Shown one piece after another: positions 6,591-10,484 of a stretch of DNA of 64,000 bases. Source of the DNA: Roseivirga sp. (GTDB lineage: Bacteria; Bacteroidota; Bacteroidia; Flavobacteriales; Schleiferiaceae); NCBI GenBank assembly GCA_051277025.1, contig JBNMPT010000001.1, positions 32 to 64,031 of the forward strand. The letters run 5' to 3'. Every line of letters begins with the position of its first letter. Within the stretch, counting starts at the first letter, position 1. A model generated the notes under the pieces. The model was not told the DNA's origin and ran no database searches. It saw only the letters and a program-made list of their open reading frames with translations. The position numbers and the translations under genes were made by a program.

Positions 6591-9500
6591 TTAACTTTCA
6601 AATGAAATAATTAGCTTGTCAGATGTTGGTCTAGCTTGGCAGGCTAAAATCATTCCGCGTTTCTTTTGTCCTTTCGACAAAGCGTCATCAATATCCATCT
6701 CTGCTGTCCCTTCTACTACCCGACAAATACATGTTCCACAGAAACCTTCTTCACAAGAGAAAGGTGCGTCCACTCCCACTTCTGCAGCGGATTCAGTTAG
6801 ATAACAACCTTCCATATTAGGAACGATGTGTTCTTCACCAAAAATATTCATGGTTATCGTTTTCGCTGCTATCACTTGCGTAGCTTTTGCTACCGCTTCA
6901 ACTTTTGGCGCCTCTTGGCTTTTAACTTTCTTCTTTGGTGATGCAAATTTTTCAACATGAACACGATCATCATCAACGCCCATATCCAACAAGCCCTCTT
7001 CTACAACATCCATAAAGCCCCAAGGACCACAAACAAAATAGAGTCCGCTCGTAATTTCGTCACAATATGATTGCACATCACGAGTATCGATACGACCTTC
7101 TGCTTTGCCTAATCGATGAATAACCTTAAAGCGCTTATTATACTGTTTTTTTAGGGCATCCAACTCGTTACGGAATATGGTTTCTTCTTTATTCCTATTC
7201 ACGTAAACAAAACGCACCTTACGATCAGAAGTATTTAAAAATTCTTTAGCAATAGATAAAACCGCCGTAACCCCACTGCCCGCAGCGAATAAATACAAAT
7301 CACCCTTTTTATCTGGTACTGTGAAACGTCCGTCTGGTGCGAGAGCGTTTAAACTATCACCAGCCTTGATATTATCGCATAACCAGTTACTTACCATACC
7401 ACCCTTAACACGTTTAACCGTAATACGCAAATCGTCATCAATACTTGGGGCGCTAGATAATGAATAGGCTCTTTTATGTGTCTCTCCCTCAATATCTAAC
7501 GATAAGGTTAAAAACTGACCAGGTCTATAGCTTAGGTATTCCTCTTTTAAATCATCTGGGACGCTTATGTAGAACGACTTACTGTCGGCAGTTTCTTCTG
7601 CAACTCTTGCCACCTTTAGTTCATTGAACATCTTTTTTGTTCGCTTAACTTGGGTGGTCGAAGCCTCTACTTTAACTGCTGTTAAAGCTGAGGTTTCGAC
7701 CTTGGCCGTTGATTCTATACTTGCCGTTACTGCTGTTACATCATTTTTTTTTTTTAAAGAAGCAAGGATTGATGTATCACCCATAAACTGGTCTGGATTA
7801 TCTGTCCCACAATTTGGACAGCCTTTTAACACATCGTCTTGATAATAATTACACGTTGGGCACTGGTAAACTTTAAAGTAAGCACGAGGCTTATTTAATT
7901 TATTAATCACTCGATTTCCGTCACCATCGAAATTATTAAAGACGGTATTGAAATCAATACCCTTCGTTTTACCTATATCGCGACACATTTTATTAAATGG
8001 ATCGATGATCGCGGCAATGTCATGAGCCATTTTTTCGGGGTCACTTTGATCGGCTTCAAACTTCTTTTCTATTTCTCTTACCTCTTTTATTAAACCTGTC
8101 CAGGTCGGATTTAAAGGATCAAATACATATGGGTCACGGCTACTATAATGGCCTTTGGCTAATACATCTATGCCTCCCCAATGAAATTTAGCATTCATGG
8201 TTTTCTCAAATGCTAAAGGGTGTGCCCAAGAGCGATATAACATATCAGTTTCTTGAACTAATACCGGGTATAACTCAGAGCCATATTTAGAGTATTCTGC
8301 AAAAGCGCTTTCTTCATAATTTTTTTCGTCTAGGGCTTTTACAGTATCAACAGCAGCCATGTAGGATGTTCCACTTCCGTAGTTAATACCGTGCGAGAAT
8401 AAGGGGTTAGAGAATTGTGCGCTATCTCCAATTGCCACCCAACCCTTACCTGCTACTTGGGTCGAGTCGTGCGCTAAACCTAAGAATGCAGCATATGGGC
8501 GGCGCTTTTCTCGGTAAGGTTTTTCAACTAATTCATAATGCTCAAGTATCCAAGCAAAAGCTGGGTACCTTTCTGCATAATGCATAAATCTTTTTTGAAT
8601 CGGTAAATCTTTCGCGGTATCCATATCATCACGAACGGTAATACCGATGGATGTAATAGGTTCAAATTCAGTACCATGCTTTTCTTGAAAGAACTTTCGT
8701 GGTGGTACATCAGAATCTTCCTCAGAATCATGGTCCATCACGTCATTCACCATTTTCAACATGGTTTCATCATCTGCACTTTCCCACGAATGAACCGTAA
8801 TAAACCAAATCCAACCTTGAGGCGTGCATAAATGACGAGTGGCTGGTTCTTGCCATCTCGCTAAAGGCACCTGCTTCTTTTGTCTAAAATATGCAAAGTA
8901 GCAGTTGGTCTGAAATGTGTCGTGAATCGCAGGGTCTTTTCTATAAGTACCTAAGTGACGTGGAAGGACTGCCGCTGGGCCAGTAGCATCACATACAAAA
9001 CGGGATTTAATGGTAAACGATTCGCCATTTTCATCAATACATGCCAATTGTTTAACTTTCCCATCTAATTGACAATCGTCAATTTCAACATGTGTATTAA
9101 CCTTAAAATCAATACCTTGCTCCTTAGTTAAACGCTGTAATGCCATTTCAAAGACACGTCGTTCAATTTGAAAAGTTTCTTCCAAATCGGTAATATCACA
9201 TTCGCTTTCTGGCTCTTTGCTTTCTGTTCCCATCCACCAAAAACGGATACCTCCTTTGTTTCCAAATAAGCGACGCATTTGAGGCATGGTGAATCCCATC
9301 GCTAGAAAGCACCTTACCGTGGTTGAAAGTGTGGATTCACCGACTTTATAACCGGGGACTTGTCTTCTTTCTAAGATAACGACTTTGCTTTCAGGTCGCA
9401 TACGTTTAACCCATTGGGCATAAATCATACCCATTGGTCCGCCACCTAATACCGCTACGTCGTAATCTACCTCTGAATCATCACTTAAGGGTGCTGAAAT

Positions 9501-10484
9501 TATTTCTGTTGGTAAATTAACAAGTTGATCTTGTATCAGCGTACTTACCTTTCTAAAGTTTTTCGCTAATTGAGCGCCTAATGCTTGCTGCAAAGACAAA
9601 GCCAATGGCGCATTATTTTTTGTTAAGTTCAAATAGTCATTACGACCTAGTCTGCCAACCCTTACCGATCCTGCTGCTTTTGCCGTTGCCCATTTTGGGC
9701 CATTATCAACTAATGAAATTAAACCGAATACTTCTCCGACTTCATGGGTATCGATAATGCGATCTTTACCGCTGGCAGAGGTGATTAATTGAACTGAACC
9801 ACTAATGACAAAATAAATGCAATCATCTATTTCGCCTTCTTCCATAAAGACATGACCACTGGGTGCCTCCACAATATCTAATGCTTCCGCTAATGTTGTC
9901 ACTTGAGAAAGAGCAACATTAGAGATATGCGGTATTTTTGATAATGCCGCGATGTCTCTCATTAGATCCGCTTTTTGCAGCTCAGTATCAAAGGATTTAG
10001 ACTCCTTTAAACCTACTGCATCACTTGTTGCATAAATACGGTTTAAATCGATTGTAGAACTGCGTATACGCTTGGTTACTTCACGTGAGAGTTGCCGGAT
10101 GAATTTAGCGGCAACACTTGGATGTTCAGACCAAAGTGTTTCCAAATCAGAGCGCATTAAAACTAATGCTGTACAACCTACATCGCATCGTACCGTAGCC
10201 GATGCTGGGCCAGGGTCCATCAATGTGATCTCACCAAACATTTCGCCCGATTTGATCTTGCCTACTTCTTTTTCGCCTGTTTCGCTACTAACGTACACAT
10301 TAAGTGAACCGCTCCAAATTAAATATAATGCTTCTGTTTCTGTTCCTTGTGCAATCGGCGTTTCACCGGCACTAATATCTTCAAATTCGAGTGCATTTAA
10401 TAACGCATCTAATTCGTTCGCTTTTAGGCCAAGCGATAAATTGGGGAATAAGGCCGTAAATCTGTTTGGTGTAATGTCATGCAT
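6591..10484 (-). CDS. Multidomain fusion: 2x cNMP-binding domain + flavin-dependent halogenase (MalA-like, C-terminal Cys4 Zn ribbon) + FNR-type FAD/NAD(P)H reductase + [2Fe-2S] ferredoxin
   Basis: CNB: FGEITL..PASAT and FGLISL..PKWAT. Halogenase: VLGGGPMG, PGYKVGESTL, LFGNKGGIRF (K410), FQIERRVFE, HLCTPQGWIWFI, GDSAQFSNPLFSHG. Zn ribbon: C875PTC..C889PNC. Reductase: RAYSLSS, GGMVS, AAGSGVT, VCGP. Ferredoxin: SCEEGFCGTC...LACQ. Confidence 0.88.
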   Translation of the reverse strand: MHDITPNRFTALFPNLSLGLKANELDALLNALEFEDISAGETPIAQGTETEALYLIWSGSLNVYVSSETGEKEVGKIKSGEMFGEITLMDPGPASATVRCDVGCTALVLMRSDLETLWSEHPSVAAKFIRQLSREVTKRIRSSTIDLNRIYATSDAVGLKESKSFDTELQKADLMRDIAALSKIPHISNVALSQVTTLAEALDIVEAPSGHVFMEEGEIDDCIYFVISGSVQLITSASGKDRIIDTHEVGEVFGLISLVDNGPKWATAKAAGSVRVGRLGRNDYLNLTKNNAPLALSLQQALGAQLAKNFRKVSTLIQDQLVNLPTEIISAPLSDDSEVDYDVAVLGGGPMGMIYAQWVKRMRPESKVVILERRQVPGYKVGESTLSTTVRCFLAMGFTMPQMRRLFGNKGGIRFWWMGTESKEPESECDITDLEETFQIERRVFEMALQRLTKEQGIDFKVNTHVEIDDCQLDGKVKQLACIDENGESFTIKSRFVCDATGPAAVLPRHLGTYRKDPAIHDTFQTNCYFAYFRQKKQVPLARWQEPATRHLCTPQGWIWFITVHSWESADDETMLKMVNDVMDHDSEEDSDVPPRKFFQEKHGTEFEPITSIGITVRDDMDTAKDLPIQKRFMHYAERYPAFAWILEHYELVEKPYREKRRPYAAFLGLAHDSTQVAGKGWVAIGDSAQFSNPLFSHGINYGSGTSYMAAVDTVKALDEKNYEESAFAEYSKYGSELYPVLVQETDMLYRSWAHPLAFEKTMNAKFHWGGIDVLAKGHYSSRDPYVFDPLNPTWTGLIKEVREIEKKFEADQSDPEKMAHDIAAIIDPFNKMCRDIGKTKGIDFNTVFNNFDGDGNRVINKLNKPRAYFKVYQCPTCNYYQDDVLKGCPNCGTDNPDQFMGDTSILASLKKKNDVTAVTASIESTAKVETSALTAVKVEASTTQVKRTKKMFNELKVARVAEETADSKSFYISVPDDLKEEYLSYRPGQFLTLSLDIEGETHKRAYSLSSAPSIDDDLRITVKRVKGGMVSNWLCDNIKAGDSLNALAPDGRFTVPDKKGDLYLFAAGSGVTAVLSIAKEFLNTSDRKVRFVYVNRNKEETIFRNELDALKKQYNKRFKVIHRLGKAEGRIDTRDVQSYCDEITSGLYFVCGPWGFMDVVEEGLLDMGVDDDRVHVEKFASPKKKVKSQEAPKVEAVAKATQVIAAKTITMNIFGEEHIVPNMEGCYLTESAAEVGVDAPFSCEEGFCGTCICRVVEGTAEMDIDDALSKGQKKRGMILACQARPTSDKLIISFES
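7744..7755 (-). repeat. A12 homopolymer on the coding strand at the halogenase/reductase junction
   Basis: Plus strand T12 at 7744-7755; coding strand TCT TTA AAA AAA AAA AAT GAT GTA A. Confidence 0.95.

Follow-up and report, generated by a model that had tools for sequence, protein, structure and literature searches.

Can a bacterial flavin-dependent halogenase (FDH) carry both a sensor and an electron supply within one polypeptide, and, if so, which ligand would the sensor recognise and by which route would the electrons reach the flavin? The question is raised by a single open reading frame (ORF), P0001, found in a contig of Roseivirga sp. (JBNMPT010000001.1) of which a stretch of 64 kb was analysed, referred to here as the window. 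P0001 occupies 6591..10484 on the minus strand, runs from an ATG at 10484 to a stop at 6591, and encodes 1297 amino acids (aa) with no internal stop. It comprises, from the N-terminus, two cyclic nucleotide-binding (CNB) domains, an FDH domain, a low-complexity linker, a ferredoxin-NADP reductase (FNR)-type module and a [2Fe-2S] domain. On balance, we consider it probable that P0001 is an FDH of the zinc-ribbon class typified by MalA, fused to its usual neighbours, i.e. a CNB regulator at the N-terminus and an NAD(P)H-dependent FNR/[2Fe-2S] reductase at the C-terminus, and that these parts work together in the way proposed below.

All features of P0001 lie on the minus strand. The first CNB domain (CNB-A, aa ~12-140; 10065..10451) contains the cassette GE..DPGPASAT and is the homologue of a separate CNB-only protein of ~170 aa in relatives, while the second (CNB-B, aa ~181-312; 9549..9944; cassette FGLISLVDNGPKWAT) is the CNB domain common across the family. 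The FDH domain, of the zinc-binding MalA class (aa ~338-900; 7785..9473), includes the codon of K410 (9255..9257), the WxWxI motif W558-I-W560-F-I562 (8799..8813) and a four-Cys ribbon (C875/C878/C889/C892; 7800..7868), and is followed by an A/T/S/K-rich low-complexity linker (aa 901-951; 7632..7784) which includes a run of twelve adenines (A12; 7744-7755). The FNR-type module (6930..7631) contains RAYS (1005-1008) and GGMVS (1028-1032) in its flavin adenine dinucleotide (FAD) part and GSGVT (1069) and CGP (1152-1154) in its NAD(P) part, and the plant-type [2Fe-2S] ferredoxin domain (6594..6863) carries the cysteines C1244-x4-C1249-x2-C1252-x29-C1282. Every Pfam domain of P0001 scored above its gathering threshold: cNMP_binding (PF00027) in two stretches (118 bits), Trp_halogenase (PF04820; 57.9 bits against a cut-off of 21), FAD_binding_6 (957-1054), NAD_binding_1 (1066-1162) and Fer2 (1214-1287). 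An original prediction for this DNA had described a single frame with this domain order and had quoted four halogenase motifs; the frame is intact, and all the motifs are located where they had been placed, namely GGGPMG, of the GxGxxG type, at 347-352, LFGNKGGIRF with K410 at 406-415, GWIWFI at 557-562, and the second FAD motif GDSAQFSNPLFSHG at 686-699. The fusion itself is real and not an assembly artefact, as contigs of two other assemblies, from a 2019 brine and a 2024 ice metagenome, show the same reading frame through the A12 run at the halogenase/reductase junction, with no indel.

Conservation in the FDH domain was counted in alignment A1, which consists of 50 family members (FDH homologues) and also served as the search profile. 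The glycines of GxGxxG (G347, G349 and G352), the two tryptophans of WxWxI (W558 and W560) and G686, D687 and G699 of the second FAD motif (GD..F.NP..S.G) are present in 50/50 relatives, K410 and I562 in 49/50, and the four ribbon cysteines in 49-50/50; being near-invariant (49-50/50) among homologues, the FDH motifs of P0001 are far from chance. The final proline of WxWxIP is Thr or Ser in the family, and Arg at the same position in MalA', the form of the malbrancheamide halogenase of Malbranchea aurantiaca used for comparison (MalA/MalA'; PDB 5WGR-5WGZ). This enzyme came first in a pairwise search of PDB sequences (E ~1e-45), with PltA far behind (1e-19), and the A1 profile matched residues 37-618 of MalA' with an E-value of 1e-83, covering all four zinc cysteines. 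The roles of MalA' residues are taken from PMC8461649, PMC8407142 and the titles of the PDB entries. K410 pairs with MalA' K108, modelled as the lysine that forms or carries the chloramine (PMC8461649), in the pairwise and in the profile alignment alike, which confirms the earlier assignment of K410 as the counterpart of the halogenase catalytic lysine. C875, C878, C889 and C892 pair with MalA' C597, C600, C613 and C616, respectively, so that by alignment the ribbon is a putative zinc site here; MalA is the first member of the zinc-binding FDH class (PMC8407142). The invariant D430 is aligned with S129 of MalA', the proposed deprotonating residue (PMC8461649).

The predicted fold agrees with these alignments. 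An AlphaFold2 model of residues 330-900 (mean predicted local distance difference test score, pLDDT, 93.3) has MalA' as its top PDB match, with a template modelling (TM) score of 0.88 over ~596 columns, and FDHs make up the best 45 structural matches, apart from 3NIX, an FDH-like flavoprotein; the FDHs following MalA' include PltM, PltA, CtcP, Mpy16, ChlB4, FasV, CmlS, RadH, CndH and Bmp2, while monooxygenases and geranylgeranyl reductases appear from rank 46 on, with TM ≤0.49. Judged by alignment and model, the FDH domain is genuine and belongs to the zinc-binding MalA class; its identity as a halogenase had been anticipated.

The relatives of P0001 carry the same parts in other arrangements. 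A locus search with the window protein alone returned only L001, and an alignment query was used for the family survey, in which six-frame translations of one genome per species placed this rare family in 34 of 185,579 species. The 34 family loci, 25 of them CNB-linked and four reductase-linked, are scattered over Chloroflexota, Actinomycetota, Cyanobacteria, Ignavibacteria/Kapaibacteria, Rhodothermia, Proteobacteria and Flavobacteriales. An exhaustive profile search of 1.84 billion cluster representatives gave only 107 matches at E ≤1e-30, with P0005 as one reductase-fused representative among the matches listed. The gene contexts of 11 relatives were examined gene by gene, and in all but the cyanobacterial one a CNB-only gene (~160-180 codons) is located upstream of the FDH gene, often overlapping its start, or has been joined to it; where encoded separately, the CNB-only proteins share 33-61% identity with CNB-A. 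In the P0010 loci (L002-L004 and L025), a gene of its own (335 codons), immediately downstream of the FDH gene, encodes the reductase, whereas in P0002-P0005, P0007, P0008 and P0014 the reductase is fused to the FDH; among the loci, L001, L023 and L024 have the fused form and L025 has the separate adjoining gene. All parts occur in one chain only in the window protein, in its relative from the metagenome-assembled genome (MAG) of L001 (90% identical, 5'-truncated) and in P0002 (81% identical).

Because relatives hold the CNB-only, CNB-FDH and FNR-Fer2 parts as separate adjacent genes, the window protein can be described as a triple fusion of a conserved module, and because the halogenase and the reductase are fused here and encoded by separate adjacent genes in relatives, the gene-fusion evidence indicates that the two work together. 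In a tree of 95 FDH domains, all reductase-linked forms fall into one clade and two-CNB fusions arose at least three times; the branching indicates that the linkage to the reductase is of single origin.

As for the electron supply, the C-terminal 345 residues match the NCBIfam model of PaaE (TIGR02160) end to end (1-351 of 352; E 3e-73), at 246.5 bits against an equivalog cut-off of 420.8, and GbcB, Hcr and BenC come next, likewise below their cut-offs. The four cluster cysteines are invariant in 9/9 reductases linked to the halogenase clade. The reductase anticipated in the original prediction is complete, and its profile matches mark it as a PaaE-like family relative, not an orthologue, of the oxygenase-feeding type and not of the Fre/RebF free-flavin type. 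Such a reductase would imply electron delivery via the iron-sulfur cluster, a route suggested by the invariance of the cluster ligands and by the close reductase relatives, all of which feed a protein partner. The linker varies from ~30 to 120 aa among fused relatives. A complex prediction for the halogenase domain (A1) and the [2Fe-2S] domain (alignment A3) scored 0.17 against a mark of 0.32, a value on which no conclusion is based.

The DNA of the linker has a peculiarity of its own. A run of 10-12 adenines is located exactly at the halogenase/reductase junction in four orthologues (window, L001, L007 and L009), which differ in the flanking linker sequence, and the A12 run is the sole homopolymer of ≥10 bases in the window. 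A slip of one base in either direction is predicted to lead to a stop within 1-7 codons and thus to a reductase-less CNB-FDH resembling the natural split forms. No variation in the length of the run was seen in the contigs of two other sequencing runs, and only the conservation of the run is worthy of note, as near off-frame stops are common in AT-rich DNA.

The canonical CNB cassette reads G-E-...-R-[ST]-A, where the glutamate contacts the ribose 2'-OH and the arginine clamps the phosphate. Compared with protein kinase A (PKA) RI-alpha, CNB-A keeps the Glu and has Ala in place of the Arg, while in CNB-B the Glu is replaced by Leu, and the Arg by Lys followed by Trp. CNB-A-type proteins share an invariant D-P-G-P-x-x-A signature and lack the Arg in 12/12 sequences of alignment A2, and the cassette Arg is likewise missing in further natural two-CNB fusions (alignment A4). 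CNB-B of most one-CNB relatives contains the motif FGL..L.D..PR[TSA]A[TS], where the Arg is kept and the Glu is always Leu; in the clade of the window protein itself, the Arg position is occupied by K, R, F or G. In a model of the tandem (pLDDT 79.9), each domain matches the regulatory (R) subunits of PKA and PKG (E 1e-17), while the overall TM score against solved tandems is ~0.3 and the relative orientation is not matched, so that the arrangement of the domains says nothing on state or ligand. PKA R subunits of Trypanosoma (6HYQ and 6H4G), described by their PDB titles as cAMP-independent and guanosine- or inosine-bound, are among the CNB matches and are, by analogy, a precedent for CNB folds sensing other ligands. 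Judged by the cassettes, CNB-A is unlikely to bind cAMP or cGMP in the canonical way, and for CNB-B of P0001 such binding is doubtful; we read the two as putative regulatory domains of CNB fold with a conserved pocket and a ligand probably other than canonically bound cAMP/cGMP.

In the proposed mechanism, the FAD of the FNR module would be reduced by NAD(P)H, and the electrons would pass, one at a time, via the [2Fe-2S] cluster on its flexible tether to the FAD of the halogenase domain. The reduced flavin, O2 and halide would then yield hypohalous acid, which K410 would guide to an electron-rich substrate that is bound within the helical C-terminal lobe. The CNB-A/CNB-B tandem would be an allosteric module tuning this activity on binding of a small ligand, probably not canonically bound cAMP/cGMP, and the enzyme's partners would be a TauE-type anion permease and a Ser/Thr kinase encoded on the same transcript, outside a natural-product cluster, in a bacterium of sea ice and brine. 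From its domain content, it is plausible that P0001 needs no helper enzyme for halogenation, i.e. that it is self-sufficient. Reduction in place by an external redox protein has precedents among fold-related flavoproteins, such as squalene monooxygenase (by P450 reductase), zeaxanthin epoxidase and archaeal geranylgeranyl reductase (by ferredoxin).

Several points weigh against this account. The activity, the cofactor and the ligand of every family member are predictions from sequence, and, to our knowledge, the partners that FNR/[2Fe-2S] reductases serve are Rieske, di-iron and haem oxygenases and not halogenases. At most of the 34 loci, no reductase gene lies near the family member. The degeneracy of both phosphate-binding cassettes makes a regulatory ligand an assumption. 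Biosynthetic genes or a cluster are present neither around the gene nor in the contexts of its relatives, and there is no hint of a substrate. Within the FDH domain, H253 of MalA' is replaced by Ala548 (Ala in 45/50 relatives), and E494 of MalA' is aligned one residue before the conserved D773, an ambiguous equivalence. Finally, the characterised two-component FDHs all use free FADH2 (PMC9772203). A bolder form of the proposal is offered tentatively, the chances being rather against it: P0001 would represent a new FDH mode, in which electrons from NAD(P)H reach a permanently bound flavin through a tethered [2Fe-2S] wire and reduce it in situ, the switch is a non-nucleotide or unusual-nucleotide ligand at the CNB-A/CNB-B pair, and the role is a physiological one outside clusters (signalling, defence or halide chemistry), shared with the anion permease and the kinase in sea-ice bacteria. 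More speculatively, the CPxCG-type four-Cys knuckle, a zinc site in recombinant MalA', might contain iron instead and serve as a relay of the rubredoxin type.

The same parts could also be joined by free flavin. The reductase would in that case be Fre/RebF-like, releasing FADH2 that diffuses or is channelled to the halogenase, and P0001 would be the natural counterpart of the engineered RebH-RebF fusion. Such a mode would agree with that of the two-component FDHs just mentioned, with the membership of Fre itself in the FNR family, with a weak NCBIfam match to NAD(P)H-flavin reductase (E 1e-9), with the long and variable tether, and with the majority of relatives, which have no dedicated reductase gene nearby and must use a general one. 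However, it seems improbable, as the [2Fe-2S] domain and its four cysteines are invariant throughout the reductases of the FDH clade, the best matches (PaaE, GbcB, Hcr and BenC) pass electrons via the cluster to a protein partner, and we know of no free-flavin reductase that contains an iron-sulfur cluster. The oxygenase-specific character that this reductase type otherwise has could instead be turned against the FDH domain, which in vivo would then be no halogenase but a ferredoxin-fed flavoprotein that keeps the halogenase scaffold and performs hydroxylation or a geranylgeranyl-reductase-like reduction. The absence of a biosynthetic cluster from the contexts, the weaker matches to the flavoproteins geranylgeranyl reductase, LodB, GoxB and QhpG, and the presence among the structural matches of 3NIX, which has no assigned function, are in line with this reading. 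It is nevertheless very unlikely, as the lysine and WxWxI, the two features which split FDHs from monooxygenases, are nearly invariant, MalA' is ahead of every non-halogenase by >50 orders of magnitude in E-value, and monooxygenases and reductases enter the structural ranking only behind the FDHs.

The remaining alternative concerns the switch. The original prediction had taken the CNB pair for a sensor of cyclic nucleoside monophosphates (cNMPs), with a nucleotide second messenger or another ligand as the switch. In its cNMP form, halogenation would be switched directly by canonical binding of cAMP or cGMP, within a local circuit of cyclase, phosphodiesterase and effector. The CNB match is strong, two of the five class III cyclase matches in the 1.8-Mb, 74%-complete MAG are located within 6 kb of the gene, a cyclase with tetratricopeptide repeats (TPR) also lies beside the L007 operon, although it is non-orthologous (33-35% identity), and other CNB-fused enzymes flank the L009 operon. 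P-R-[TSA]-A is moreover kept in CNB-B of most one-CNB relatives, and Epac binds cAMP though it lacks the cassette Glu. Yet the substitutions in P0001 (Arg to Ala in CNB-A, Arg to Lys and Glu to Leu in CNB-B) affect the very residues of the canonical contacts, and the loss of the Arg extends to every CNB-A-type protein of A2 and to the two-CNB fusions of A4. 2QCS chain B, which shares the highest scores with one other PDB chain, is presumably the R333K form of PKA RI-alpha, in which we take cAMP binding to be weakened; the Trypanosoma PKA R subunits, with a non-canonical cassette, bind nucleosides instead. No cyclase is located within 10 kb at any of the 34 genome loci, and the candidate phosphodiesterase, a protein of metallo-β-lactamase (MBL) fold, scores 56 bits against a cut-off of 400 bits and is not conserved beside the gene. 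Gating by cAMP or cGMP is thus unlikely. Of the earlier interpretation, the halogenase and its fused reductase, a separate adjacent gene in relatives, are upheld, whereas the cNMP sensor as it was described is not. The MalA-class FDH with a CNB regulator of probably other ligand specificity and a tethered reductase remains the reading that we adopt.

The gene belongs to a short operon on the minus strand. The first gene of the operon encodes a TauE/SafE (TSUP) anion permease of 431 aa (11358..12653; L007 orthologue 73% identical), and its second a Hanks-type Ser/Thr kinase domain protein of 266 aa (10561..11361; L009 orthologue 64% identical, in the same position). The two genes overlap by 4 bases, and 76 bases separate the end of the kinase gene from the FDH start. 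The order TauE-kinase-FDH is conserved in L007, L008, L009 and L010, with orthologues 64-73% identical, while the downstream genes differ locus by locus; a shorter TauE gene is located near reductase-linked Chloroflexia loci. The operon kinase contains the conserved HRD, DLG and APE and the Lys of VIK, and its catalytic loop HRDIKPAK has Lys in place of the usual Hanks Asn, a change that the L009 orthologue shares. Seven distant loci also have generic Hanks kinases nearby (E 1e-14 to 1e-20), but these are no orthologues of the operon kinase and were set aside as background. A promoter/terminator scan of 4500-14300 gave counts not above those of shuffled sequence, with a consensus ill-suited to Bacteroidota.

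A search of 60 related genomes, of which 15 belong to the same genus, gave no halogenase orthologue. The G+C content is 0.35-0.42 in window 1-13300 against mostly 0.41-0.47 in the housekeeping region beyond, and a DUF4372 transposase fragment (12964-13287) marks the end of the low-G+C region; for these reasons, the operon was probably acquired horizontally. The sequence occurs nearly whole in 22 DNA sequencing runs, all labelled ice metagenome but one, a brine metagenome. Three contigs of 151-260 nt, identical or nearly identical to the gene at window 7793-8095 and 9526-9783, occur in two metatranscriptome runs (marine and ice); they represent presence in RNA libraries, not proof of transcription.

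Among known systems, MalA' shares with the FDH domain of P0001 its whole-domain fold and, at equivalent positions, the catalytic lysine, WxWxI without the final proline, the second FAD motif and the four-Cys zinc ribbon, at ~24% identity in the structural alignment and with Asp in place of S129 in addition to Ala in place of H253. However, MalA is a fungal, stand-alone enzyme of 667 aa from an alkaloid gene cluster, with neither CNB domain nor reductase, whereas P0001 is a bacterial fusion outside a cluster; MalA is listed with the conventional FDHs, for which a separate flavin reductase is needed (PMC8407142, PMC9772203). The single-component FDHs Bmp5 and AetF, the only natural ones named in PMC9772203, work as one polypeptide on NAD(P)H, O2 and halide, as P0001 would if the proposal holds, but they are related to flavin monooxygenases and combine NADPH and FAD in one catalytic unit, whereas P0001 is a conventional FDH tethered to an FNR/[2Fe-2S] reductase. 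In the engineered RebH-RebF, cited in PMC9772203, halogenase and reductase are likewise in one chain, but that fusion is artificial and its reductase yields free FADH2, while the fusion in P0001 is natural; according to the same paper, natural fusions of reductase and FDH did not turn up in a survey of the whole FDH family.

The combination of an FNR flavin/NAD module with a plant-type [2Fe-2S] domain is shared with reductases of the PaaE/KshB/GbcB/BenC type, and self-sufficient P450s of the CYP116B class (PDB 6LAA and 6KBH) have, like P0001, a reductase tethered to the oxygen-activating domain that it presumably serves; unlike in P0001, the acceptors of PaaE/CYP116B-type reductases are di-iron, Rieske or haem centres, never an FDH. 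A CNB fold N-terminal to an enzyme is also present in the mycobacterial Pat acetyltransferase (NCBIfam NF058543 match), and the tandem A/B arrangement resembles that of PKA R subunits, from which P0001 differs by the missing canonical Arg in both cassettes and by the domain orientation. A search of a literature library gave, among the papers listed, none on an FDH with CNB domains or with a [2Fe-2S] reductase, and no description of a natural enzyme of CNB-CNB-FDH-FNR-[2Fe-2S] design, in agreement with the novelty claimed for the architecture.

New here are the complete triple fusion, the TauE-kinase operon, the single origin of the reductase linkage and the family-wide loss of the CNB-A Arg, together with the ice and brine habitat, the conserved A-run at the junction and a list of cultured carriers, which comprises Nocardia sp. 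NPDC060255 and NPDC046473, Labedaea rhizosphaerae DSM 45361 and Calothrix sp. PCC 7103. FDHs are sought in biocatalysis for selective C-H halogenation, and P0001 and its relatives are natural fusions with an electron-transfer module not linked to halogenases before, in a family that offers natural split and fused versions for comparison. That a sensor is fused to a halogenase, and that a second sensor subunit is conserved, suggests that halogenation is controlled post-translationally, a form of control not described before. As the gene is found in ice and brine metagenomes and outside biosynthetic clusters, it also bears on the organohalogen producers of sea ice, where bromocarbons have been reported to form without sunlight (PMC6290016), the link to bromocarbons being conjectural.

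Some further genes of the window and of the family loci deserve mention. The two cyclases referred to above are tandem, membrane-anchored TPR class III cyclases on the plus strand (window 688-2523 and 2529-4658), and both have K in ..KIKTIGDAYM.. and D in ..YDIWGD.., a pair which we take to be that of adenylate-type specificity. They were considered as a part of the system and rejected, their L007 counterpart being non-orthologous and none being located near the 34 genome loci, and they are kept as a weak lead only. The MBL-fold gene (5182-6000), rejected as a cyclic-nucleotide phosphodiesterase, matches RNase Z better, again below the cut-off, and has no counterpart next to the orthologues of L001, L007 and L009. 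A cluster of CNB-fused proteins adjoins the orthologous operon in L009 (12473-18240) and L010 (10046-15813), and comprises a 936-aa protein of CNB and class V aminotransferase, a CNB + MGS-like protein, a 320-aa CNB protein and a GATase_4 protein. In L054 (9956-11122; Actinomycetes MAG), the family gene, split into several short frames, is probably a pseudogene. In L045-L049 (Actinomycetota MAGs), a CNB-A-type domain is fused straight to the FDH, and one or two more FDH-like flavoprotein genes with partial matches to A1 (E ~1e-20 to 1e-26) are located on the flanks, so that the context there may be a different, cluster-like one.

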